A DNA stretch of 64,000 nucleotides. Source: Patescibacteria group bacterium. Its GTDB lineage: Bacteria; Patescibacteriota; Microgenomatia; UBA1400; UBA12028. The position numbers were made by a program, and so were the translations under genes. Below the pieces are notes generated by a model, which worked only from the letters and a program-made list of their open reading frames with translations, did no database searches and was not told where the DNA came from. This document shows positions 4,129 through 26,628 of this stretch, piece by piece; position 1 is the stretch's first letter, and every line of letters begins with the position of its first letter. The DNA is taken from positions 4,365 to 68,364 of the forward strand of contig DATIJC010000020.1 in assembly GCA_035479015.1 (NCBI GenBank), read 5' to 3'.

Positions 4129-5235
4129 ATGCCTCTCAGAGCCCGTGCCGTCTATCTTGCCCTCGCCAGCACGCTGCTCTTTTCAGCGTGTACGCAAAAC
4201 GGTCAAGTAGCTACGCTGGAACAAAAACCTTCGCTCCTGCAAGCATTGATCTCCACCGCCACGAAATCAGGTGCAACTCCAGTTCCAGAAAAATTACCTG
4301 CATACAAGAGTCCAGGACGTGAGTTTTCATTACCAGGTGCTAAATGGGTGCCTCAGAGTTACAACAACTGCGCGCCTGCCACTACATCTATGATCCTTCA
4401 GTACTTTGGTCATAGTGTCAGTCAAGTTGAGACCAAACAGGCTTTGCGAACTACCTCAGGTGATAAAAATGTATTTACTCCGGAAATTCAAACATATTTA
4501 AAAAATACCTATAACTTAGAGTCCAAGCTTGGATTTGGGGGCGATTTGCAAATGCTTAAAACGTTGTTTACGAACGGTTTTTATGTGATGGTAGAAGATT
4601 GGTTACATCCTGGTGAAGACATCGGACATAATACAATTATCCGGGGATTTGATGACGATAGGCAAGTGGTGATTTCCGATGACTCATTTATTGGCGCAGG
4701 AGTCACTTTTCCCTACGATGTTTTCGTAAATAATCAATGGAAGGCCTTTAACCGCGAATACTTGATCGTCTATACCAAGGATAAAGAGCCTCTGCTCAAA
4801 GCAATACTTGCCAGCCGCTTTGATGACAAGGCCATGTGGCAGCATGCGATCGATATCAATACGAGTGAGACAAAGAGTGCTCCAAACGATATGTATGCGT
4901 GGTTTAATCTCGGCAGTAGTTATTATGGGGCGGGAAGTTTCTCACAAGCAAAAACTGCCTTTGATAAAGCGAAAGCTATCGGGTGGCCCCGTCGTATGTT
5001 GTGGTACCAAATCCAGCCGATTCAAACTTACAACAAGGTTGGTGAATATCAAAAAGCGCTTGATTTAATTGCCGAAGGCCTGGCTGGTAATCAAGAATTT
5101 GCGGAGTTGCATTATGAGGCAGCTGTTGCCTATAAAGGACTTGGTCAGCTTGACCGAGCGCGTAGCGAAGTTCAATTAGCTCTTAGCTTTGCTCCCAAAT
5201 ATGCACCAGCGCTAGTTTTATCAAAACAGCTCTAA
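4129..5235 (+). CDS. lipoprotein with a peptidase C39-like (papain-fold) domain and C-terminal TPR repeats
   Basis: Lipobox LLFSAC. The motif Q..NNCAPATTSMILQYFGH matches the C39-like Cys block. TPR-like helices AWFNLGSSYYGAGSFSQAKTAFDKA and YEAAVAYKGLGQLDRARSEVQLAL. Confidence 0.65.
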   Translation: MPLRARAVYLALASTLLFSACTQNGQVATLEQKPSLLQALISTATKSGATPVPEKLPAYKSPGREFSLPGAKWVPQSYNNCAPATTSMILQYFGHSVSQVETKQALRTTSGDKNVFTPEIQTYLKNTYNLESKLGFGGDLQMLKTLFTNGFYVMVEDWLHPGEDIGHNTIIRGFDDDRQVVISDDSFIGAGVTFPYDVFVNNQWKAFNREYLIVYTKDKEPLLKAILASRFDDKAMWQHAIDINTSETKSAPNDMYAWFNLGSSYYGAGSFSQAKTAFDKAKAIGWPRRMLWYQIQPIQTYNKVGEYQKALDLIAEGLAGNQEFAELHYEAAVAYKGLGQLDRARSEVQLALSFAPKYAPALVLSKQL

Positions 5236-10575: not shown

Positions 10576-10941
10576 ATGCAAACAATTCTGATCGTGGAAG
10601 ATGATACACAGACACAGGGGTTATACAAGGAAGCGCTGACACAAGCGGGGTTTGAGACGACAGTTGCTGGCAATATCGCTCAAGCACGGACGATGGTGAA
10701 TGAAAAACCGCCAGATTTAGTGCTTCTGGATATTATGATGCCGGGTGGTGAAAACGGATTTGATTTCCTGGAAACATTACAGAAAGATCCCCACTTCAAA
10801 ACAATACCGGTCATCGTTCTTACAAATCTAGACAGTGAGGAAAAAACCGCAAAAGAGATAGGAGCAAAAGAGTATCTGATTAAGACAAACGTCTCAATAA
10901 ATGAGATTATTGCTGCGGTGAAGCGACATCTAGCTTCTTGA
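10576..10941 (+). CDS. single-domain response regulator (receiver only)
   Basis: ILIVEDD...LVLLDIMMPGGENG...IPVIVLTN...K. Confidence 0.85.
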   Translation: MQTILIVEDDTQTQGLYKEALTQAGFETTVAGNIAQARTMVNEKPPDLVLLDIMMPGGENGFDFLETLQKDPHFKTIPVIVLTNLDSEEKTAKEIGAKEYLIKTNVSINEIIAAVKRHLAS

Positions 10942-11367: not shown

Positions 11368-11927
11368 TTATACCCCAACTTGGCTAGGTTCTCTACAATT
11401 TGAATTTTTGTATCTCCCTTTTTCCCCCAAATATCGGACAAAAGAGTGGTAGTCTCCCTGGTTTCCCAGGGCCAGATTATCCATGCCTTGGATGTGTGGG
11501 AGTAAAAGTCAGGAATGACTTTGGTCCAAGGTTTAATGACTAGGGTCGCCGTCTGAACCTCACTGGCTCCATGAAAGCCCAGATAAGATCTGGCCATGGC
11601 TAGGGTTTCTCCGCTATCGGCAATATCATCAATGATGAGCACTTTCTCTCCGCGGATTGAGATTGGCAGGGACTGGGTGATGACAGGAGTACGGTTGGTC
11701 GTAGCGATCCCAGAGTAAAATTCGATTTGAATCGAACTTAGTTCTTTCATGCCAAGCAGGTCTAGTATGGGTCTGGCTATCGTCGTACCGCCCTTGGCTA
11801 GTGCTATCACACGGTCAAAACTCTCCTTCTTGTCGATTATTTTTACTGCAAGTGTCTCTACACCTTGGCCAAAATCTTCCCAAGAGAATACTTCGTAAGT
11901 TTGATCGTGGATGAGGCTTCTGATCAT
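11349..11927 (-). CDS. purine phosphoribosyltransferase (Gpt/Hpt-like)
   Basis: PRPP loop VLIIDDIADSGETL. The C-terminal block WIIWPWE resembles Gpt WIEQPWD. The last 3 codons are supplied by repeat copy 2. Confidence 0.7.
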   Translation of the reverse strand: MIRSLIHDQTYEVFSWEDFGQGVETLAVKIIDKKESFDRVIALAKGGTTIARPILDLLGMKELSSIQIEFYSGIATTNRTPVITQSLPISIRGEKVLIIDDIADSGETLAMARSYLGFHGASEVQTATLVIKPWTKVIPDFYSHTSKAWIIWPWETRETTTLLSDIWGKKGDTKIQIVENLAKLGYKSVIPV

Positions 11928-13606
11928 TTTCTACATGCCTCTAGGAATGCTAAAAAGATTGCATGGGGTTTGAGGGGGGTCGATTTATACTCAGGGTGGC
12001 CTTGCGTACCTACAAAGAACGGATGCACATTTTTTGGCAACTCTATCAATTCGACTAGATTTTCCTTGACGCTCCGTCCAGAGATGATGACGCCCGCTTG
12101 TTCAAATTGGGGTACGTATGCATCATTAACCTCATATCTATGGCGGTGCCGCTCAGCAGTTAACCCTTTTTTCTCGTCCACCATTTGGTCATACTTTTTG
12201 TAAATTTCAAAAAGCCGCGTACCCGGCTTGACTATGCACTCCCATGTTCCCAGTCGCATAGTTCCACCATATGCCCGGTTTTCCAAAATCCGTTTTTGTT
12301 CTGGAATCATATGAATGACTAAATCAGTAGTTTTTGGATCCACCTCCTGTGTGTGGGCATCCTTGATATTCAACACATTTCGCGCAAATTCCACCATAGC
12401 TAGCTGCATGCCATAGCAAAGACCTAAGTAGGGAATTTTCGCTTCACGGGCATACTGGATACTGCGGATCTTGCCCTCTACGCCGCGTGTGCCCCAACCG
12501 ATCGGTACAATTAAGCCATCCAGGTGTCCAAAGAATGTTGCTAGATCTTTGTTAGAAAGTTTGGAATTATCCTTTTGCAGTTTTTCAATTTTCGAAGCAT
12601 CCACCCAAACAATCTCCGTCTCAGTGTCTTTTGCGTCACTAGCATGATGCAGTGCATCGATAAGCGCAGCGTAGGAATCTTTGAGTTGGTATTCACCTGT
12701 TGCCAGGTACTTGCCGACGATCGCTATGCGGGCGGTGTGTTTTTTCTTCCGCCGCGCAATTTTTACCATATTTTCCCAAGCTTCAAGCCTGAGAGTTTTT
12801 TTGGGTAAAGATAAGTCATCTAAAATCAATTCATCAAAGTGCTGCTCCCGAAACAGGAGTGGGATCTCATATATGTTGGCTACATCCGGGCTCTCAATAA
12901 TATGGTCACTCTGTACATTACAAAACAGCGCAAATCTGTCACGGCGGCGCTGATCCATTCGCTGATCGGCACGTGCCACGATAAAATCGGGCTGGATGCC
13001 TAGGGAATTGAGTGTCTGCACTGAAAGTTGAGTCGGTTTGGTTTTGGGTTCGCCGATGTGAGCTGGCGTCGGTAAATAACTGACATGGATATGGATGACT
13101 TGTTGCTTGTGCGTCAGCCGCAAGACGCGGGCAGTCTCATAGTACAAAATGTTGAGGTACTCCCCCGCCGTACCGCCCAATTCAACTATCACAATTTCGG
13201 CGTTATCTTTTTTGGCTGCAGCATTGATGCGTCCAATGATCTCATCACAAATATGGGGCACTTCCACATCCTCTCCGTCATACCCGAAGGCACGTTCACG
13301 ATCGATGACAGCTTTATAGATCTGACCCATGGTCACGAAATTACTCTTTCCCATCTCTTGACCGAGGAACTTTTCATAGGTCCCGAGGTCCATGTCGGAT
13401 TCGGTGCCATCTTCACACAAAAATGGATCGCCATGTTCAATGGGGTTTATGAGTCCGGAATCAATATTGAGATAGTTTTCACACTTTACGATGGTCACCC
13501 GATAACCACGGGACTTGAGGAGCAGAGCGATAGAGCCAGTAACGATTCCCTTACCAAGGGAAGAAAGCACACCTCCGGAAACAAAGATGTATTTTACTTG
13601 GGGCAT
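11924..13606 (-). CDS. pyrG: CTP synthase
   Basis: N-terminus KYIFVSGGVLSSLGKG, a DPY-like block, and the GATase triad region GLCYGMQ. Confidence 0.95.
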   Translation of the reverse strand: MPQVKYIFVSGGVLSSLGKGIVTGSIALLLKSRGYRVTIVKCENYLNIDSGLINPIEHGDPFLCEDGTESDMDLGTYEKFLGQEMGKSNFVTMGQIYKAVIDRERAFGYDGEDVEVPHICDEIIGRINAAAKKDNAEIVIVELGGTAGEYLNILYYETARVLRLTHKQQVIHIHVSYLPTPAHIGEPKTKPTQLSVQTLNSLGIQPDFIVARADQRMDQRRRDRFALFCNVQSDHIIESPDVANIYEIPLLFREQHFDELILDDLSLPKKTLRLEAWENMVKIARRKKKHTARIAIVGKYLATGEYQLKDSYAALIDALHHASDAKDTETEIVWVDASKIEKLQKDNSKLSNKDLATFFGHLDGLIVPIGWGTRGVEGKIRSIQYAREAKIPYLGLCYGMQLAMVEFARNVLNIKDAHTQEVDPKTTDLVIHMIPEQKRILENRAYGGTMRLGTWECIVKPGTRLFEIYKKYDQMVDEKKGLTAERHRHRYEVNDAYVPQFEQAGVIISGRSVKENLVELIELPKNVHPFFVGTQGHPEYKSTPLKPHAIFLAFLEACRK

Positions 13607-13612
13607 AGGTAA

Positions 13613-16600
13613 TTATACCAATGCTTCGGCCAAAATGCCAGATACCTCATTTTGCGTCTGCTCGTCCCAAGTGATGGTATAGGGCAGGCGCATCGACGTA
13701 TGTGATTCGCCATTGGGGATAAGCACGGTCAATTCATCTTCGCCTGGCCGAGTCTTTAGATATCTTCCGATCTCCTGCAACTTCTCTTTGGGAGTGCCAC
13801 GCGGAATGACAAGCGTGTTGGTTGGCTTATTTGATTCTTGTGGATTAACCGCTTCTGGCTCACGGACTTTATCTACCTGGAGAGAAAATTTTCCCTCACG
13901 AAGTGCTAGCTTGCCCTTCATGATCACTACTTTGTCTACGCCAAGGAAGTCTTTATACACTGTGTAACTTCTTGGAAATATGACAAAGTCAATTGTGCCT
14001 GTGCCATCATCAAGAGTGCCAAAACACATCTCTTCTTGTTTCTGCTTGGTGAGCACTTGCCGCTGAGTCGCTATGAACCCACCCAGAGATACTACCGCCC
14101 CCTCATGCAACTGCTCATCCAAATTTTTGATTTGATGCGTAGACAGTTTGGATACTTCATCCAAGGCATCTGCCATAGGATGCCTGGTGAGATAAAAACC
14201 AAACAACTCTTTTTCAAACGATAACAGTTCTGCCTGAGGGTACTCTTCAATGTTCCGGAACGTATCTTTAGTTTCATGCGCTTGGGCATGTGCTTCACCA
14301 GTAAATAGGCCATCTTGACCCTCAATTGTGTCAGCAACTACGCCTATGCCGCTGCGGATTTCTTCCAACTGCTCCAATATTGATGCCCGTGTGCAAAACG
14401 AATCAAAAGCTCCAATTTTTGCTAAACTCTCCAGCACCTTTTTATTTACTTTTCTCGCATCAGTTCTGCGCAAAAAATCAGTAAATGATGCAAAGGGTCC
14501 ATTTTCCCTAGCAGCTTGAATACTTTCAATTGCAGCTGACCCTACATTTTTGACTGCACCTAAACCAAAGCGTATTGAACTTTCTTCGATACTGAAATCA
14601 TCGCTGGATTTATTAATATCGGGCGGTAGTACTGTGATCCCAAGACGTCTGCACTCACTGATTGCTTGTGAGACCTTCTCTTCCCGATTTGCGCCCATTG
14701 AGTGGCTCTCTACGGAGAGCAGTGCGCACATATACTCAGCAGGGTAGTTGGTCTTCATGTACGCGGTTTGGTAGGCAATCATGGCATAGCCTGCGCTATG
14801 TGCACGGCCAAAACCGTAGCCAGCAAATTTCTCAATAAATCCCCATACCTTCTCGATCGTCTTTTCGTCGTATCCTTTGGCTTTAGCGCCCTTTTTAAAT
14901 TTTTCCTTCTCTACCATCATGATCTCAGTTTTTTTCTTTCCAATGGCACGGCGTAATTCATCCGCTTGGCCCATACTAAAACCTGCCATGACGTTAGCAA
15001 CCTGCAAACACTGCTCTTGGTACAAGAGAACACCGTATGTATCTTTCAGCACCGGCTCCAAATCAATATGTGGGTACTTGATACTCTTGGGATTATTTTT
15101 ACTAGCTACGAAATCATCAATCAGCGCCATAGGACCAGGTCGGTACAGCGCCACCATAGCTGCCAGGTCAGAGAAAACACTGGGCTTGAGTGATCGTGCG
15201 AGTTTTCGCATACCGCCTGATTCCATTTGAAACACACCTGTCGTCTCGCCGCTGGCAATCATTGCATAGACCTTTTTATCATCGATAGGAATACGGGCCA
15301 AGTCCACCACTTCGTCGCGTGTTTCTTTCACTACTCGGATTGATTCTTCTAGGATAGAAAGATTTCGGAGGCCTAAAAAGTCCATCTTCAGTAGTCCGAT
15401 AGCATCAGATGAAACGTTGAGATCCAATACTTTCATGTCATATTGTGTAATAGTCTTACCCGACTTGCTATCTCTTTGAATTGGCGTGTACTCCATGAGT
15501 GGCTTATCGGCAATAATCACACCCGCGGCGTGCACACTTGTGTGCCGTGCGCTGCCTTCCACCTTCATCGCTAGATCGAGGAGCTCTTTGTACTTGGGCT
15601 GCTGATAGTAGATACCGAGTTCAGCCACGCTTGCCAGCGCATCCTTGATATGCACCACATGTCCTTGTACTGGCTCCGGAATAAGTTTGGCCACATGATC
15701 GACTTCCGTATATGACATGCCAAGCACTCTACCGACATCGCGAACAGCGGCCTTGCTCTCCATTCGCCCAAATGTAATGATCTGACCCACTTTGTCCGCT
15801 CCGTATTTTGCCGTCACATAGGCGATCACTTCATCACGGCGCCTATCTGCAAAATCAATATCGATATCAGGGGTGGATTCACGCTCCGGATTCATGAAAC
15901 GCTCAAATGGCAGCGCGTGAACAAGTGGATCAATTGTCGTGATATTTAATGCAAATGAGAGCAGAGATCCGGCGGCAGATCCACGGCCCGGGCCCACGAA
16001 TATGCCTTGAGATTTTGACCAGTTCACAAAATCCTGCACAATCAAAAAGTACGTGAGGTAGCCTTTATCCTCAATCACTTTCATTTCATATTGGAGCCTC
16101 GCCGCCGCTGAAGCGGGATCAAAAATATTGTTAGGATTAGCAGTCGCTTTCTTCTTTTCAAATTCTTTTACGCCGGGATAGATTGAATCCAATCGCTCAA
16201 ACGCAAGCTTGGCGACATAAGATGACACAGTTTCCCCTTCCGGAATATCAAATTTTGGGAAAATCACCCTGCCCAATGGGATTTGCAAATCACACTTATT
16301 GGCAATTTTTACAGTATTCTCTAGAGCGTCCGGGTACTGTCCAAACTCTGCTTCCATTTCTTTGATGGTTTTGAGGTAAAAATCATTGGCTCCCATTTTC
16401 ATGCGATCTGTATCTGAAATAAGCTTACGTGTTTGAATACACAAAAGTGCGTCTTGTGCCCGCGCATCGTCTGGTGAAATGTAGTGAACATCGTTGGTAG
16501 CGACTAAGGGTATTCCTAGTTCTCTGGACAACTTCACCATCTCTTCACGCATGTTTTCAACTTCTAGGATCTCCGGATGTGACTGTATCTCGATATAAAA

Positions 16601-17107
16601 ATCACCTTCAAAAAGTTCATAGTATTTTCTCAGTTCTGCTTTTGCTTCATCGCGCTGATTATTCATGATGAGCTTGCTAAAGCGGCTAGCGAGACACCCA
16701 CTGGTAGCGATAATTCCCTCATGGTGTTTTTTAAGCAGATCAAAATCAAAACGGGGTTTATAGGAAAATCCATCCAAGTGTGCAAATGAGGTGAGCTTCA
16801 TGAGGTTTTGGTACCCAGTAAAATTTTTAGCGAGCAATAATATGTGAAATTGGTCGGCGCCCATTTTCGCTTGCTTCTCTCGCATGTCACCAGCTGACAT
16901 GTAGCCTTCCATACCGACGATGGGTTTCATTTCCTTGGCGCGAAGCTTGTTATAGAAGTGAACCGCACCGTGCATGACACCGTGATCGGTTATAGCCAAC
17001 GCATCCTGGCCGTCATCATGTGCGCGTGTTGCTAATTCTGGGATTTTTGACAGCCCATCTAGGAGTGAAAACTCTGTATGGACGTGCAGATGGACAAAAG
17101 AAGACAT
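13613..17107 (-). CDS. dnaE: DNA polymerase III alpha subunit
   Basis: PHP domain HLHVHTEFSLLDG, palm/fingers conserved blocks, 1164 aa. Confidence 0.95.
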   Translation of the reverse strand: MSSFVHLHVHTEFSLLDGLSKIPELATRAHDDGQDALAITDHGVMHGAVHFYNKLRAKEMKPIVGMEGYMSAGDMREKQAKMGADQFHILLLAKNFTGYQNLMKLTSFAHLDGFSYKPRFDFDLLKKHHEGIIATSGCLASRFSKLIMNNQRDEAKAELRKYYELFEGDFYIEIQSHPEILEVENMREEMVKLSRELGIPLVATNDVHYISPDDARAQDALLCIQTRKLISDTDRMKMGANDFYLKTIKEMEAEFGQYPDALENTVKIANKCDLQIPLGRVIFPKFDIPEGETVSSYVAKLAFERLDSIYPGVKEFEKKKATANPNNIFDPASAAARLQYEMKVIEDKGYLTYFLIVQDFVNWSKSQGIFVGPGRGSAAGSLLSFALNITTIDPLVHALPFERFMNPERESTPDIDIDFADRRRDEVIAYVTAKYGADKVGQIITFGRMESKAAVRDVGRVLGMSYTEVDHVAKLIPEPVQGHVVHIKDALASVAELGIYYQQPKYKELLDLAMKVEGSARHTSVHAAGVIIADKPLMEYTPIQRDSKSGKTITQYDMKVLDLNVSSDAIGLLKMDFLGLRNLSILEESIRVVKETRDEVVDLARIPIDDKKVYAMIASGETTGVFQMESGGMRKLARSLKPSVFSDLAAMVALYRPGPMALIDDFVASKNNPKSIKYPHIDLEPVLKDTYGVLLYQEQCLQVANVMAGFSMGQADELRRAIGKKKTEIMMVEKEKFKKGAKAKGYDEKTIEKVWGFIEKFAGYGFGRAHSAGYAMIAYQTAYMKTNYPAEYMCALLSVESHSMGANREEKVSQAISECRRLGITVLPPDINKSSDDFSIEESSIRFGLGAVKNVGSAAIESIQAARENGPFASFTDFLRRTDARKVNKKVLESLAKIGAFDSFCTRASILEQLEEIRSGIGVVADTIEGQDGLFTGEAHAQAHETKDTFRNIEEYPQAELLSFEKELFGFYLTRHPMADALDEVSKLSTHQIKNLDEQLHEGAVVSLGGFIATQRQVLTKQKQEEMCFGTLDDGTGTIDFVIFPRSYTVYKDFLGVDKVVIMKGKLALREGKFSLQVDKVREPEAVNPQESNKPTNTLVIPRGTPKEKLQEIGRYLKTRPGEDELTVLIPNGESHTSMRLPYTITWDEQTQNEVSGILAEALV

Positions 17108-17145
17108 GGGGATATCCTACGGCAAAACTTGAGAAAGATGAAGAG

Positions 17146-20100
17146 TTAGAGTGTTGCAAGTACGTAATCCTTCAAACCCTCATCTGAAACACTATTATAG
17201 AGCGCCAGCTTAATTGAAAATTTTTCACCAGGGTGGTTCTGCAACCAAAGGTTTGCTGCACTATCAACATCCACCTCATTTTTTATTCCATTTTTGAATT
17301 CAGTTTTGATCCAGGTTTCTGGAGTTATATCTTCATTTTCAAGACTTTCTTCCTCTGGGGTTAATTCTTCAGTCGCTTCTGTTTGAGGAGTAACACGCGG
17401 CATTACAATAGTTGGTTGACTCACCTCACGCAAAACTTGCGTCGTGCTCTTTCCTTCGAAGGGAGGCATATGAAAGAACATTTTTACTTTATTCACTTCG
17501 GCATTATGCCGGATATCGTTGGGATCTACAGCTGGTACTCTCCATCCGATTGCTTGTTCAGGAAATTGAAAAGCCTCACTAGCCTGGCTCTCATACACCG
17601 AATAAACCTCTGCAACCATCTCAGCTCTATTTGACTCAATTTTCCCTACATTTTCGATCAAGCGTGCTAAGTATCTAGGGGTATCAAGTAGTTCGGCAAC
17701 AATCTTTGGTGAAACTTTCTTCTCTAATACAAGTTGAGCTATTACTTCTCTCAGTTTTTCCAGGGTATTTTTGAAATCGTCTTCTTGAAGCTTTCTATTA
17801 ACTTTGACACCTTCTGACATTGCATTAACTGATTCCATTATTTGCTCAGGCCAACTAGAATTTGCCACAAAAAGTGGCATGGTAAAAACTTTTTCAATCT
17901 TACTAAGTACTTCCGACGAATCACCGCTCACCCCTTCCCCGAAGACCTGTATCGCATACTGGAGCGCTTCCGCTGGTGTTACTTCGACATCTTCTGGAAT
18001 TAGACTGAGTGCACGTTCAAACTCCGGCTTATAACTTTCGTTGGATATGTTGAGATCAACTTGTTTCAACCGTACCACGTTGGCCTCAAAAGTTTCTTTT
18101 AATTCGTTGTCTTTTTCAGATTTCTTTTTCTTGTCTCCAATATGCCTAGCTTGATCCTGTGCGTATGAAACAGCTGACTCAATGGCGCTATAGAAATCGC
18201 TCAGAGGACTATTGAATAGTAAGCTCTCTTGTCCTTCAGGTATCCTTCCCTGTCCCATTGCCACTAAAAATAAACTTTGAGGATTATTGACAAGCAATAA
18301 ACTAGACAATAAGCGTTGAGACCGCTCTTTGGATGTCTGCATATTCGCACGTGTCTTTTTAATCCTATTAAGTTCTTTTCTTTGTTCTCTGACTTTATCC
18401 TTCTTATCACTTTCTTTATTTTTGGACAACCATGTTTCAATCTTAGTGATCTCTCCTGTCAATCTTTGCACATCTTGTAAGTCGTCACTAAGTGACATTT
18501 CAATCAGTAATTGTGACGCTTCAACTGCTTCCGCTATGTCCTCAAGCACATGGTTCACAACTTCATTAAATTCATCCTCCTTAGCAATTGCGTCCAAGAG
18601 CTTCGAGTATTGCTTCCTGCGCAGTTCTAACAACCTATCTGATAACTGTGATGTATATGTAGTTTTGGGATATGCTGCTTGATCAATTAAGTCGAATAAC
18701 GCCTGATGTATTGAGTCCAAATCGTATGTTTTACCCCAGAGTAAGATTTTTCGTCCTCTGTCAGTCAGGCTTTCAGGCATTCCTGCAAGGAACATCTCGT
18801 TCTCTTGTTCGGATAATGGATGATTTTGAATTTGAACCACCTCTGTAAAGAATGCGACTGAGTATGTTTCAACCATTGCGTTATCAAGATAACCCTCTAG
18901 TGCGCTTAGGTAATGCAGAAGTTCTACAGTGCGGCTGCCTAAACTCTCCAGTATCCTTTCGGCAGGAAGCCCAAGATGCTCTAAAATGTTGCTGATCCGT
19001 ACTAATGCTTGGTCGGAATGGCCTTCAAGTTGGTTCGCTGCAAGTAGCTGTTGAATATCCTGGTGCAATATCTCATAGCTCTGTATCTGCAAACGGGCTC
19101 GGTCCGAAGCGTCGATTCGCTTTTTCTTGGTATTATTCTTTCTTGCATCAGTTTCCAACCTTTTCTCTTCAGTGACTAATAGTTCCTGGTAACCTTGCTG
19201 TAATTTTTTTACAAAAAGCACCTGGACATAGTTTTCAGGATAGCAGATGAACTCTTGGCAACGCTCTTCAACTAACCGCTCCTTTGTTGCCCGTTTTTCT
19301 TCGCGGGTTTGTCGGCGCTGTTCTCGAGCTGCTTGTTCTTGCGATACTAAATGGACATATTCTTCTGTAGATCCTCCCTCAGCGTGCATCACCCAAAACT
19401 TTCCAGGTACGTCTGTCGGCGCGTAGCGTGATCCTTCGTCGGCGAAAATTGAAGTGAACTCGGCAGTGGTCAAAGATTCAATGAGGTCGTCATTGCTCGC
19501 CCCAGGTTGAAAATTGTAACGGTCAATGCGCGCCGCACCATCAAATTCAGGGGTTTCAAAAAGCTTAGCTAGAGGCTGACCAGGTATATCCGCTTCCGCA
19601 GCCTCTGGTTCCGTTATTTCTTCTACCTCACTATCTGTCACATCATCTTCGGGCTCAACATGATTTCCCTGTTCAGCGGGAAGTTCAATAATTTGTCCGA
19701 ATATTCCCTCTCTACCACGCCAAGAATGTATAACATCAATTATTCTTGGATCAGAATTGACTTCCAAACGAGCGTCGGGCTCATTTTCCTCAACAAACGC
19801 ATACAGAGAATCTAAGTTCCCCAAGATCTCAGACATTGTTCCATGCTTAAAAACAAGTTGCATTCCATCGTCCAAACTTTTCTGAAGAAAATCAAATGCC
19901 AGCTTCGTTTCCTCTCGTTTTAATCTATCTTGCTCAGAAAGTGCTGTGGCCTGCTCAGGCACTTTTGGAATAGGTGGTAGTCTCTCTTCTCTAACTCCCT
20001 CAAAATCACCAGGGTTAGCGCGTGTGTCGTATGGGCGTGAGGAGGCCTCTCCCCTATCCGGTAAAGGTTGGAGTGGGACCATTCTACTTTTCTTAGATTT

Positions 20101-20187
20101 GGACGGTAACTGTTCAACCCCCATACCTTGGTCCTTACTGGCCATGTAACTCCTTTTGGATCGATTCTTGCACTCTTTCTCTATCAA
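17146..20187 (-). CDS. large orphan protein (about 1000 aa), acidic with coiled-coil-rich stretches and no recognisable domain. The true start is probably a downstream Met (for example MASKDQ at 20145), which would avoid the 53-nt overlap with gatB.
   Basis: Uninterrupted 1013-codon frame. No Walker, HExxH or other motifs seen. Confidence 0.55.
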
Positions 20188-21430
20188 CTCTGCCTGCTTT
20201 TTTAAATACCATGCCGATTATAAACCCTAGCACCTGCTGTTTGCCAGCTTTATAATCACTGACAGCCTTTGGATTCTCAGAAAGCACTGTCGCAATCACC
20301 TGGGACAATTTACTATCATCCATTTGCACCGTACTTTCAAGAGCTGCCATCTGTTCCAGTAGTATTTCTTTTGTATCACCTGTTATTTTCCCATTCACCA
20401 CCAAGTTAGCTACTCTTGCAGCACTACCTCCCAATTCTTCCATAACAGCCACTAGTTTTGGATTTTTGGCAATAATTTTTGCATCTGATTCTTTCAGTCC
20501 AAGCTCTTGTAAATGAGCGACAGTTTCCTGTGGAAGCCGCGGTAGAGCAGACATGATCCCCTCAACAAACTCTTTTGTGAAGTGTAATGGCGGTAGGTCT
20601 GGATCTGGGAAATAGCGATAGTCTTCCGCGGACTCTTTACTTCGCTGGGCAAATGTTTCACCCTTGGATTCGTTCCACCCACGTGTTTCTTGTCTCGGCA
20701 ATTCGCCTTTTCTCCGAATCTCTGATTGTCTCACTGTCTCAAAAGCAATTGCTCGTTCTATGTATCTGAAAGAGTTTAAGTTTTTGACCTCTACTTTATA
20801 TGGTGGTAAAGATTTATCAAAGGTTACGCTGATATTTGCTTCTAGGCGCATGGAACCCTTTTCCATGTCAGCGCTACTAACTTCTAGTGCTTTGATAATT
20901 TCAGCAATTTTTTTGGTATAGGCTTTGGCAGCCTCAGGAGAATGAATGTCAGGCTCACTAACTATCTCTACTAGTGGTACTCCAGAGCGGTTAAAGTCGA
21001 TCAAGGATTCATTATTTTGATGAAGTAATTTCCCTGTATCTTCTTCCAAATGAACGCGAGTAATCCGTACTGGACCAAATTCAGTATCTACGCTACCTTC
21101 GTAGCACAGCGGCTGATCATACTGGCTGATTTGATAGCCCTTTGGGAGATCCGGGTAAAAATAATGTTTGCGGTCAAATTTAGAAAACAAATTGATCTTG
21201 CACCCGAGAGCTAATCCAATCTTAATCGTCCACTCAATCGCCTTTTTATTCGCAACCGGTAGTGCTCCGGGCATCCCTAGACACACTGGACAGGTGTAGA
21301 TGTTAGGTTCTGGTGCAAAAAACGGATCATTCTTGCAGCCACAAAACATCTTGCTCTTTGTCGCAAGTTCGACGTGAATCTCAATCCCCACAACTGGTGT
21401 AAATGTACTTATTTTATCCATGCGTTCCAT
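20135..21430 (-). CDS. gatB: Asp/Glu-tRNA amidotransferase subunit B
   Basis: [20 protein letters not shown]...[15 protein letters not shown]. Confidence 0.9.
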
Positions 21431-22785
21431 TCTGTCGCTTGTTCATACGCGTAGGCGGCCTGGATCATGCGCTCTTCTTGCCACATGGGGGCAACAATGT
21501 TCAAACCAAGATACAAATTCGTTTTCTGATCGTGATACATTGGCACGTTTATTCCAGGTAAACCAGAAATAGAACTCGGTTCTACCAACATATCCGCCAA
21601 TTCTCCAAACATCGGGTTATCTCCGAGAGCGCCAATTTTTTGGGCAAACCCAGGCGATGTTGGTGAGATCAATAAATCGTATTTTTCAAACAGCTCGTTG
21701 TAGTTTTGAATGTACATTGAGCGAACTTGTTGCGCCTTCACATAGTACTTATCTGAATATCCTTTTGAAAGTGTGAAGGTTCCCAGCATGATGCGTCGTC
21801 TGGCTTCTTCGCCAAAGAACGAACGGTCATTGCCATAACGCACACCGTCATAGCGGGCTAAATTACTGCTCACTTCGCTGCGCTGTACCACTGTGTACAC
21901 AGCAATCGCTAGATCCGGTTTCATTGCCTTCGCAGTTTCTACTGTTGCGCCCAAGTTTTCAAATACTTTGCCGGCTTGCTGTAGCGCATTGGCAACTACT
22001 GTACCCTTAATTTTCTCATGTTCACTATAGAGAAGTCCGATACGCAACCCTTTCACCCCTTTTTTTATCTCCTTTGTAAAATCAGGAACGGGCAGCTTGG
22101 AAGTGGTCCCATCATATTTATCACTCCCAGCGATAATATTTAAAAGAATAGCCGTGTCATCTACTGTTTTTCCCATTGGCCCTGGGCTATCAAGTGACGA
22201 GCCCATCGCTACAACACCTGCACGGCTAACGCGTCCATACGTTGGCTTCAATCCGACGATCCCGCACCAACTAGCTGGTTGGCGTATAGATCCAGCCGTT
22301 TCTGAGCCAATGGCGGCGATACATAAATCTGCGGCTACCGCTGCAGCGCTCCCGCCAGAAGAGCCCCCTGGCAAATACTCAAGATTTCGGGGGTTTTTAG
22401 TCGGACCAAAGTCGGATGTCTCTGTACTGCTCCCGTGCGCCCAAGCGTCCATATTGGTTTTACCAATGATTGCTGCACCAGCCTCTTTTAGTTTCTTCGT
22501 GACAGTTGACTCGTATGGTGGTTTAAAATTTTCTAAAACTTTCGAACTCGCAGTCGTTACTAATCCCTTAGTCAAAAAGTTATCTTTAATTGCCAACGGT
22601 GCTCCTAACAAACTATTTGGATTTTGGAGTTTGGATTTTGGATTTTTGTTCCTCGCTAAATATATGTTTAGTTTTGGATTCTCTTGGTCAATCGCTTCGT
22701 TAATTTCAGCCAGTACGTCGTCCGGCGAAATTTCTCTTGCTTTCACTTTATCCAAATACTGTTTTAAGGTTAAATTTCTTAGCAT
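21409..22785 (-). CDS. gatA: Asp/Glu-tRNA amidotransferase subunit A (amidase signature)
   Basis: [13 protein letters not shown]...[13 protein letters not shown]. Confidence 0.95.
22619..22646. repeat. heptanucleotide tandem array (GGATTTT/GGAGTTT) x4 inside the gatA coding sequence; encodes [11 protein letters not shown]
   Basis: Seen directly. The same unit occurs inside ileS at 50692-50721. Confidence 0.7.
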
Positions 22786-22787
22786 AA

Positions 22788-23087
22788 CTACTCACCAATC
22801 AATTGCGGTACCACAAAATATCCATCGTGTTTATTTGATGCATTACTCAGCGCTTCCTCCTGTGTAAACATGCGCTCCTCGTCTACCTCATCTTCTCGCA
22901 ATACATTTTCCAAGCCAGTCACCTGATGTGTGGGCTCCACTCCGGATGTATCTACGTCCATGAGTTGGTCAACTACCTTGAGAGTCGTGACAAAACCCGA
23001 AGCTAATTTTTCCTCTTCAGCCTTCGTGACAGGTATGTTTGCGAGATTTGCAATGTGCGCGACAAGCTGCGCATTCATGACGGACAT
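22788..23087 (-). CDS. gatC: Asp/Glu-tRNA amidotransferase subunit C
   Basis: 99 aa, immediately upstream of gatA, with a GatC-like sequence. Confidence 0.8.
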   Translation of the reverse strand: MSVMNAQLVAHIANLANIPVTKAEEEKLASGFVTTLKVVDQLMDVDTSGVEPTHQVTGLENVLREDEVDEERMFTQEEALSNASNKHDGYFVVPQLIGE

Positions 23088-23099
23088 ATGGGTTATATT

Positions 23100-24032
23100 C
23101 TACATCGATTTTAATCTTTTGATGCGGTCAGCAAGGGGTGGATGCGTAGAAAAAAGTCCAGAGAGAAATCCGACAGCACCATTGCCTTCAAACTTCATAT
23201 TTGGGGTGTCCAAATGAAATGGGCTGTGAATATACAGATGTGCCGTGGCTTTGTTAGCAGCTTCAAGAGGTTCACGGTCAGCGCCAAGCTTGGCAAGGGC
23301 CGACGCTAGTCCTGGTGGATACTTAGTCAGAGCCGCTCCGGAAGCATCAGCTAAGTATTCGCGCTCTCTAGAGATAGCTAGCTGGATCAAGGTTGCGATA
23401 ATTGGCGACAAAATAGCAAAGACAATTCCCAGGACAAAGAAAATCATCTGTGAATCTCCACCTTCGCGGTTGTTACGCCGTTTGCCCCCGCCAAAATAGG
23501 TAATGCGCAAAAACCAGTCACCAAGCAACGCGACCAATCCCACTAGGATCGAAACGATAGACATCAAGCGCGTGTCATAGTTTCTTACATGTGATAGCTC
23601 GTGAGCGATCACACCTTCAAGTTCTGTACGATCAAGACGAGAGAGAATTCCTGTTGTTGCACACAAAGCTGCGTGTTGTGGATCACGACCCGTAGCGAAT
23701 GCATTCATTGCGGTGTCGTCTATAACATAGAGCTTTGGCATTGGTAAACCTGCTGCCAAGCATAAGTTTTCAGTGACTGTATAGAACATGAAGTCGTGTT
23801 TGCGGTCAGCAGGACGTGCGCCTGAGATACCCAAAACTATTTGATCGGAAAAGTAATAACTGCCCAAAGACGTAGCTCCAGCGATGACCAGCGCAAAGCC
23901 TGAAATAGAGAGCGGATCATACCCCAAGCCTTGGGCCATGACGTATGCGACAGCAACCACGAACACCACAAACAAGATCATGATGATCCAGCTTTTACGT
24001 TTGTTCTGGTCAACCGCCTGATAAAAATTCAT
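23100..24032 (-). CDS. htpX: M48 zinc metalloprotease HtpX-like
   Basis: TM helices plus HELSHV (the HExxH motif). Confidence 0.85.
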   Translation of the reverse strand: MNFYQAVDQNKRKSWIIMILFVVFVVAVAYVMAQGLGYDPLSISGFALVIAGATSLGSYYFSDQIVLGISGARPADRKHDFMFYTVTENLCLAAGLPMPKLYVIDDTAMNAFATGRDPQHAALCATTGILSRLDRTELEGVIAHELSHVRNYDTRLMSIVSILVGLVALLGDWFLRITYFGGGKRRNNREGGDSQMIFFVLGIVFAILSPIIATLIQLAISREREYLADASGAALTKYPPGLASALAKLGADREPLEAANKATAHLYIHSPFHLDTPNMKFEGNGAVGFLSGLFSTHPPLADRIKRLKSM

Positions 24033-24811
24033 TACTTCCTCTTTCGTTTGCCTTCTTCTTTTATTTTATCTCCTCGCATGAGCGGCTGTATACTTTGTTC
24101 ATACTCAATAACAAAGTTGTCTACCTGGTTGCCAGAGAACCCTATTCTTGTATATTTTCCACAAATGTAGAGCCCGTTAAGTACTTGCCGTCGCTGTCCA
24201 CCTCTGATTATCCCTTGTTTAGGTATTTCTGAAACACCATATTCCCTAGCAATCCACCAAACAAACTCTTGAATCAGATAGAAGCAATATCCAACTTCTG
24301 AAATCTGCTTTTCTCTCACCTCAACGAGAACCTTAGACACGATTTTTTCATCATAAAAGTTTTGTTCATATGATATTTGGTGAACTATATCATCCGGGTC
24401 TCGAACTCTTCCTTCCTCACGATATATTTGTTGATCCAGATAGAACTTCACCAACAGATCAATATATGTTCGAATTTCATTCAAGTGATCAACTACTTCC
24501 TGATCCCTTACTTCTTCACCTTCTGTATTTAACAATTCATATAGCGCAACAATATTCTCATACGTATCAGAAACTTTGTTGAAATGCTCGAGATAACTTA
24601 GAGCATTTCTAGTTACAATATCAGCACATAAATTGCGAAATTCAGAAAGATTCTCAAAACCAATTTGTTTTGCGTATGTTTGAAAGTGTAAATATTCATC
24701 AAGTATTCGCCCATAACGTGTGCCAGAGATGCTATCGCTATACAAAGTAGCAAGTTGCTCAATTGACGCGACACGTTGATCAAACTCAACTTTAGAAATA
24801 TGGTTAGCCAT
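24032..24811 (-). CDS. hypothetical protein (259 aa)
   Basis: Intact ORF in an operon with htpX and lemA. No motif recognised. Confidence 0.45.
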   Translation of the reverse strand: MANHISKVEFDQRVASIEQLATLYSDSISGTRYGRILDEYLHFQTYAKQIGFENLSEFRNLCADIVTRNALSYLEHFNKVSDTYENIVALYELLNTEGEEVRDQEVVDHLNEIRTYIDLLVKFYLDQQIYREEGRVRDPDDIVHQISYEQNFYDEKIVSKVLVEVREKQISEVGYCFYLIQEFVWWIAREYGVSEIPKQGIIRGGQRRQVLNGLYICGKYTRIGFSGNQVDNFVIEYEQSIQPLMRGDKIKEEGKRKRK

Positions 24812-26584: not shown

Positions 26585-26628
26585 TGCTACATTGTACAGA
26601 ATAATAGAAAATTTTCACTATTTATTGC

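Follow-up and report, generated by a model that had tools for sequence, protein, structure and literature searches.

The subject of this work is a large gene between gatB and dnaE on the minus strand of a 64,000-nucleotide stretch of DNA (positions 4,365 to 68,364 of contig DATIJC010000020.1, assembly GCA_035479015.1; hereafter, the window) from a Woesebacteria-like metagenome-assembled genome (MAG) of the Patescibacteria. The gene, which we call the orphan, is genuine, and it is probable, in our view, that it is the current occupant of a replaceable slot at this position in a Woesebacteria-like clade, that is, a dispensable accessory gene found so far in one species and not a conserved partner of the genes around it. 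In related genomes, the slot may be empty or may hold unrelated occupants, and its borders are sharp and shared, which together indicate that the orphan is one allele of a replacement-type variable slot. At the level of the clade, the orphan is dispensable. The features on which the argument depends are as follows, in window coordinates.

20135..21430, minus strand: gatB, the upstream flank of the slot (NCBIfam GatB, 492 bits; Pfam GatB_N and a shortened GatB_Yqey)
17121..20192, minus strand: the variable slot, whose DNA resembles that of no related locus (blastn against L003-L006 and L026)
17146..20145, minus strand: the orphan coding sequence, 999 amino acids plus the stop codon TAA at 17146-17148 (from the open reading frame and coding statistics)
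13613..17107, minus strand: dnaE, the downstream flank of the slot (NCBIfam DNA polymerase III alpha subunit, 1285 bits)

Slot contents in related genomes

Related loci were gathered through a DnaE-anchored scan of GTDB genomes, which gave four loci with DnaE 70-72% identical to that of the window (some of them labelled Woesebacteria) and one at 57%, and through GatB-anchored look-ups, which covered nine of more than 100 contigs and gave seven further contexts. The order lemA-htpX-gatC-gatA-gatB-slot-dnaE-pyrG-phosphoribosyltransferase-L19 is kept in 12 related loci (L003-L006, L026, L031 and L033-L038), with flank proteins that are 46-79% identical to those of the window. The slot itself is empty in three of the 12 and filled in the other nine, as well as in a contig from the JGI metagenomes, with the following contents.

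Window: 999 amino acids, the orphan
L005: 286 amino acids
L034: 548 amino acids
JGI contig: 780 amino acids (from a gene table only, with no DNA)
L035: 817 amino acids
L033: 827 amino acids
L036: 939 amino acids
L003: at least 804 amino acids
L006: 515 and 696 amino acids
L031: 499 and 695 amino acids
L004: 551 and 864 amino acids
L026, L037 and L038: empty, with 20-55 nucleotides from gatB to dnaE

BLASTP and phmmer sort these occupants into family A (the 864-residue protein of L004 and the occupants of L036, L034 and L033, at about 21% identity), family B (the 551-, 515- and 499-residue proteins of L004, L006 and L031), family C (the 696- and 695-residue proteins of L006 and L031) and four singletons, the orphan included. 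There are thus at least seven mutually unalignable groups, to which profile-profile comparison adds no links; hhalign, run on all occupants both with single sequences and profile against profile, found nothing beyond the known families. No Pfam family was found in any occupant that was scanned or had a precomputed annotation, and the six occupants other than the orphan that were scanned gave no PHROGs or PADLOC match. All of the sequenced occupants have an isoelectric point (pI) of 4.4-5.6 and no membrane segment, with a hydrophobic 19-mer that never scores above 1.51. Transposases, restriction systems and other typical island cargo were not seen in the slot.

The original prediction, made from the window alone, had reasoned from the essential neighbours that the gene has an important lineage-specific function, had proposed to check its conservation and synteny in related genomes, and had named absence from relatives as an outcome that would refute it. 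The comparison does not bear the expectation out, and it is this refuting outcome that was obtained: no relative has a detectable homolog, the gene is replaced by unrelated occupants even where DnaE is 93-96% identical, and L026, L037 and L038 have nothing in the slot.

Replacement or divergence

Three close pairs of relatives speak for replacement. The DnaE proteins of L004 and L006 are 95% identical and their GatB proteins 83% identical, yet their slots hold unalignable occupants; DnaE is 93% identical between L005 and L035, yet their occupants are unalignable, and also between L034 and L036, yet their slot DNA cannot be aligned. In all three pairs, homology at the DNA level is lost within the final 40-80 nucleotides of gatB and returns 30-40 nucleotides before the dnaE ATG. 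For the window, blastn places the borders at 20193, to which gatB is conserved, and at 17120, from which the element upstream of dnaE is conserved.

A fourth pair, L006 and L031, has DnaE proteins that are 96% identical and slot proteins that are still 81-83% identical, and this retention at a similar core distance means that the rate of point mutation alone cannot account for the loss of similarity in the other pairs. In the same pair, the ratio of nonsynonymous to synonymous substitution rates (dN/dS) is 0.28-0.32 for the slot genes versus 0.02-0.10 for recognised flanking genes, which indicates that the slot genes encode selected proteins. Synonymous divergence (dS) is lower in the slot (0.29-0.42) than in the flanks (0.52-1.70), despite the greater amino-acid divergence in the slot, a pattern that hints that the cassette may have been shared more recently than the core that surrounds it. 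Family A, moreover, occurs in three separate core lineages with DnaE proteins that are 71-77% identical, in a pattern incongruent with the DnaE tree; for instance, the occupant of L034 matches that of the distant L033 (E 1e-6) better than that of L036, its sister (E 0.045). A mechanism compatible with these observations would be the swapping of cassettes by homologous recombination in the conserved flanks, with a pool of very divergent alleles as their source.

The alternative that shares most of these data is that all of the occupants, the orphan included, are fast-evolving positional orthologs of a single ancestral gene with one sequence-tolerant function. The filler of the slot is indeed always of the same kind, being large, acidic, in like orientation and free of membrane segments and Pfam domains, and the slot does not contain the cargo typical of islands; family A is barely recognisable, at about 21% identity, where DnaE is 71-77% identical, and slot dN/dS is roughly tenfold that of the majority of core genes in the flanks. 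The orphan and family C also share weak collinear motif matches, which might be taken in favour of this alternative. These matches involve residues 232-397 of the orphan and the 696-residue occupant of L006, with segments that include FSPTEDPKAFFL and LKFLGVPESR (pairwise E 0.086), and they looked like remote homology; we rejected them because the score against a family C profile was reached by 89-127 of 2000 shuffled orphan sequences. A C-terminal 'LA+L...i..id.lY' module that appeared to be shared in a MAFFT alignment was rejected in the same manner, as 142-245 of 1000 shuffles reached its score against the family A profile. These failures, the negative profile-profile comparisons, the disagreement between family A and the core tree, and above all the coexistence of pairs at 93-96% DnaE identity whose slot DNA is wholly unalignable within sharp borders with a pair at 96% that keeps its slot proteins, make common descent of all occupants unlikely.

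Two further proposals concern where the gene came from and what it is tied to. The orphan could have been inserted between gatB and dnaE as a defence system or as the cargo of a mobile element or prophage remnant. Its patchy presence, sharp borders and slightly lower GC content (0.427 versus 0.458 in dnaE) resemble those of an insertion, and variable hotspots that lie between core genes frequently carry genes for defence. On the other hand, there are no matches in PHROGs, PADLOC, phage genomes or viral contigs, no integrase, no adjoining tRNA gene (the nearest lies at 26628), no flanking direct or inverted repeats and no nuclease or ATPase motifs, and codon usage is native-like, with a GC content at third codon positions equal to that of gatB; we regard such an origin as very unlikely. 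With respect to known anti-phage defence in particular, PADLOC gave no matches for the orphan and six other occupants, and the orphan contains no Walker A, DEAD or HExxH motif. We also looked for signs of a diversity-generating retroelement target by comparing the open reading frame with the 64-kb window only (blastn), and this gave just chance matches of 21-22 nucleotides and no pair of template and variable repeats. The proposal of the original prediction, an important lineage-specific protein with a functional link to GatCAB or DNA polymerase III and a shared transcript, takes its strength from the shared orientation, the 11-nucleotide overlap with gatB, the 38 nucleotides that separate the gene from dnaE and the failure to find a terminator-like site between the genes. 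It is difficult to reconcile with the absence of the orphan from every relative, three of which have gatB directly beside dnaE, with its replacement by unrelated proteins at near-identical DnaE, with the conserved promoter-like element that dnaE has of its own, and with the lack of any clamp-binding, Walker or other motif, and its probability is, in our estimation, even smaller than that of a mobile or defence origin.

Evidence for the gene and its start site

The orphan is a protein-coding gene. Its open reading frame (ORF) runs uninterrupted on the minus strand over 17146..20187, with 1013 codons if counted from a mechanically assigned TTG, and the chance of that many stop-free codons, calculated from base composition, is about 7e-25. 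A codon log-odds score trained on six neighbouring genes averages +0.21 per codon in frame, whereas the five other frames give -0.29 to -0.65, and every one of the ten 100-codon blocks of the gene scores above zero. The GC contents of the three codon positions are 0.565, 0.343 and 0.374 in the orphan and 0.537, 0.363 and 0.380 in gatB. The same sequence, without differences, was recovered in three independent assemblies or read sets, namely a 336-kb contig of GCA_964572785.1, another MAG and a Logan contig, and the public copies show 0-1 mismatches over 3-23 kb. For instance, only one of the 23,000 bases at positions 7146-30145 of the window is mismatched in CAZNEY010000002.1 (L001, from GCA_964572785.1), so that the public assemblies represent one near-clonal population.

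A spurious ORF, or one born recently de novo and without a functional protein, would account for the complete absence of homologs, for the lack of a confident fold in the AlphaFold2 models and for the parts of the protein that are predicted to be without structure. Such an ORF would not be expected, however, to stay open over 3 kb, to show over its whole length the frame-specific codon bias of its neighbours or to have a good ribosome-binding site, and purifying selection acts on comparable slot genes of relatives (dN/dS about 0.3); we therefore give this explanation almost no weight.

The start of the gene, which the original prediction correctly described as overlapping the end of gatB, can be placed with the help of the following features.

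20150..20155, minus strand: Shine-Dalgarno-like AAGGAG, 4 nucleotides from the ATG at 20145 (read from the sequence)
20135..20145, minus strand: overlap of 11 nucleotides between the end of gatB (stop codon TAA at 20135-20137) and the start of the orphan
20080..20082, minus strand: alternative start ATG (M22), used in the public annotation HSW89677.1, of 978 amino acids

The TTG at 20187 is merely the first possible start codon of the ORF. The best-supported start is the ATG at 20145, which yields 999 amino acids, and the gene-caller product in GCA_964572785.1 is identical to this protein. The overlap with gatB suggests that translation of the two genes may be coupled. Only a weak purine-rich stretch precedes the alternative ATG at 20082, and the choice between the two starts alters nothing except a proline-rich N-terminus predicted to be without structure. 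A geometry like that of the orphan, AAGGAGG followed by 3 nucleotides, is also seen at a response-regulator gene at 10576.

The original prediction was also right about the setting of the gene. Only dnaE is longer than this ORF in the window, and third in length comes a class I tRNA synthetase of 964 codons; the ORF is co-oriented and nearly contiguous with gatCAB and dnaE, with which it forms the order gatC-gatA-gatB-orphan-dnaE-pyrG on one strand. The remaining members of this group, identified with NCBIfam, are listed below; a phosphoribosyltransferase gene, also an NCBIfam match, lies further downstream on the same strand.

22788-23087, minus strand: gatC
21409-22785, minus strand: gatA
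11924-13606, minus strand: pyrG

The GatB protein of the window is short, with 431 amino acids versus about 480 in the model, and its YqeY-like C-terminal domain starts at profile position 47 of 148; GatB is short in the relatives of the clade too (435-464 amino acids).

Homology searches

The original prediction recognised no motif in the protein and held that a clear match to a known family in a profile search would speak against it. We found no such match, and the claim stands after domain, homolog and motif searches. Pfam returned nothing above noise, NCBIfam no match, and PHROGs and PADLOC zero matches each, and a sequence search of the PDB also gave nothing above noise (best E 1.5). The orphan matched only itself both among 5.8 billion word-indexed proteins and in an exhaustive phmmer search of 1.84 billion representatives, and no homolog was found in JGI metagenome contigs, IMG/VR viral contigs or GenBank phage genomes. 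There are no paralogs within the window. This isolation is partly due to sampling, as the nearest GatB in the set of 5.8 billion proteins is only 66% identical to that of the window.

Predicted protein

The orphan protein has a mass of 113.6 kDa, a pI of 4.80 and 17.9% glutamate plus aspartate (12% glutamate), in agreement with its earlier description as acidic. Its hydropathy over 19 residues reaches at most 1.42, which gives no membrane segment, and inspection of its N-terminus revealed nothing like a signal peptide. No internal repeats were found, and a motif scan detected no Walker, DEAD, HExxH, CxxC or clamp-binding motif. Three regions of the protein, all encoded on the minus strand, stand out.

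19936..20145, minus strand: residues 1-70, a proline-rich N-terminus with no predicted secondary structure (low-confidence model)
19546..19695, minus strand: residues 151-200, strongly acidic, with a net charge of -15
18289..18546, minus strand: residues 534-619, long charged helices with a heptad-like pattern, the only confidently modelled part

Run without an alignment, AlphaFold2 reached a mean predicted local distance difference test score (pLDDT) of 39.3 for the full length and 43.1 for residues 351-860, and from these models only the picture of secondary structure is usable. It comprises 32 predicted helices, which cover about 61% of the residues, and no strands, at low confidence, and little or no secondary structure is predicted at residues 1-70, about 150-259 and 853-941; the acidic stretch at 151-200 falls within the second of these regions, which is almost entirely without predicted secondary structure. 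The earlier suggestion that the protein is partly coiled-coil applies to about residues 534-619, where the heptad score is 0.59 versus a maximum of 0.54 in 200 shuffles and where pLDDT is 64-87 in two independent AlphaFold2 runs, and does not extend to the rest of the protein. The product is probably soluble, non-enzymatic and mostly alpha-helical and probably has flexible linkers, acidic and proline-rich, and a single coiled-coil-like stretch, properties that might suit a scaffold or a binding or interaction protein. In its size, acidity, richness in helix and single heptad-like stretch, the orphan resembles long coiled-coil or SMC-like proteins; unlike them, it shows the heptad pattern over less than 10% of its length and has neither Walker A and B motifs nor a hinge, nor any sequence or profile match in Pfam or the PDB.

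Expression context

The original prediction had suggested that the orphan and dnaE are transcribed together. Such co-transcription is not needed, as dnaE retains a conserved promoter-like element of its own.

17108..17145, minus strand: promoter-like element for dnaE, in the 38-nucleotide intergenic region, with TTCATC at 17137-17142, a 17-nucleotide spacer and TAGGAT at 17114-17119

In the window, TAGGAT is followed by 6 nucleotides and then by the dnaE ATG (17105-17107). When 12 upstream regions were compared, the nine relatives with an occupied slot were found to have CTTCTC(T)TTT and TA[GTA]GAT boxes at the same positions, whatever the occupant, and the two closest relatives with an empty slot (L037 and L038) have TACACT in place of the TA[GTA]GAT box. 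This geometry would fit a promoter for a leaderless mRNA. A consensus promoter scan missed the element because its -35 box is poor.

No terminator-like site was found between the genes, and no TA[GTA]GAT-like box was found upstream of the orphan. Given that the orphan lacks such a box and has both a Shine-Dalgarno site and an overlap with gatB, it more plausibly ends a gatCAB-X transcript as its last cistron, expressed through that site and the 11-nucleotide overlap, and dnaE would be independent of read-through, with transcription restarting from its own promoter-like element.

Similar arrangements occur elsewhere in the window. A strong promoter-like site for pyrG lies at 13607-13641 on the minus strand, with CTGGCA, 18 nucleotides and TG-TATAAT ending 5 nucleotides before the ATG, and -10-like boxes stand 9 nucleotides before the ATG of gatC (TAGAAT) and of the L19 gene (TAAAAT). 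As many genes here have no Shine-Dalgarno site, leaderless starts may be common in this genome.

Possible role and known parallels

Genes under diversifying pressure typically show such turnover, and for this reason it is conceivable, if speculative and on balance doubtful, that the orphan takes part in an interaction with phages, host cells or competitors. Several points weigh against our interpretation of the gene as a replaceable accessory or against parts of it. A role in conflict or interaction has no direct support, as PADLOC and PHROGs were negative and there is no secretion signal, and the structural description is based on low-confidence models, with pLDDT of 39-43. The data contain no second strain of the window's species with another occupant, and with the nearest GatB among 5.8 billion proteins only 66% identical, turnover has been demonstrated in relatives and not in the window's own lineage. 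For the orphan itself, rapid vertical divergence beyond recognition is possible, considering that family A has fallen to about 21% identity at DnaE identities of 71-77%.

A bolder idea is that the slot encodes large, acidic, helical proteins that are hyper-diverse and interchangeable, form a class not recognised before and share one role, such as host or phage specificity, with ancient alleles that are shuffled by recombination. It would be likened to O-antigen or pilin variation, as a cytoplasmic or non-classically exported analogue in an ultra-small symbiont, and we consider it improbable.

The orphan protein belongs to no known family. Under the interpretation of the orphan as the occupant of a replaceable slot, the slot is a fresh example of the variable replacement slots that are already known. 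Lopez-Perez, Martin-Cuadrado and Rodriguez-Valera (2014; PMC4033161) described replacement-type flexible genomic islands that are exchanged by homologous recombination in aquatic and streamlined bacteria. The slot resembles these islands in its fixed locus between core genes, its non-homologous content in close relatives, its sharp breaks of flank homology, its occupants that seem equivalent in kind and the plausibility of recombination in the flanks. It differs in that those islands are multi-gene and encode exposed structures such as O-antigen and glycosylation, whereas the slot holds one or two genes for soluble, acidic helical proteins, and in that those islands vary between strains, whereas the slot was compared between species and genera, with DnaE 70-96% identical. 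Furthermore, the occupants have no signal peptides, and surface exposure is thus not indicated, unlike in the classic cassettes for exposed structures.

Two other reports deal with organisms closer to ours. In groundwater Patescibacteria, the same phylum as the window, up to 13% of the genome length was found to be horizontally transferred, mostly between Patescibacteria (PMC12455944). The islands in that study were called by composition-based tools and described by their annotated functions, whereas none of the proteins in the slot can be annotated, and its composition is anomalous only in a GC content that is about 3% lower. A Gracilibacterium gene described as hypervariable and explained by pressure to diversify (PMC6851277) likewise comes from the Candidate Phyla Radiation and shows extreme local variability; in that case, however, the variation is of PTD repeats inside one gene in one population, and in the slot, there are no repeats and whole genes are replaced between lineages. 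What is unusual in the slot is that a one- or two-gene cassette is wedged between gatB and dnaE and always encodes the same physico-chemical type of unrecognisable protein.

A single unannotatable protein in a candidate-phyla genome is ordinary, and the genomic context is the more useful result. A precisely bounded slot offers a tractable marker of strain-level diversification in organisms that cannot be cultured, and if it were true that the occupants set host or phage specificity, they would point to partner-choice genes in episymbiotic bacteria. The case also warns against inferring, in these genomes, what a gene does from the essential genes beside it.

Other observations around the locus

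Variation is not confined to the gatB-dnaE slot. An ORF of 259 amino acids without a Pfam match lies between lemA and htpX in the window (24032-24811, minus strand), and relatives have ORFs of 103-149 amino acids or nothing at that position. In one relative, a contig of JGI sample 3300078620, the lemA-htpX slot holds a 119-amino-acid match to bAvd / 23S_rRNA_IVP, a type of protein that accompanies diversity-generating retroelements. Among L004, L006, L031 and L033-L036, some loci have a cytochrome-b5 gene between htpX and gatC, and some have a Pfam-less ORF of 419-436 amino acids between dnaE and pyrG. Finally, the records of L003, L006 and L026 are titled 'uncultured Pseudomonadales bacterium'; their DnaE proteins are 57-71% identical to that of the window, and L003 and L006 share its gene order, so these taxonomic labels look wrong.

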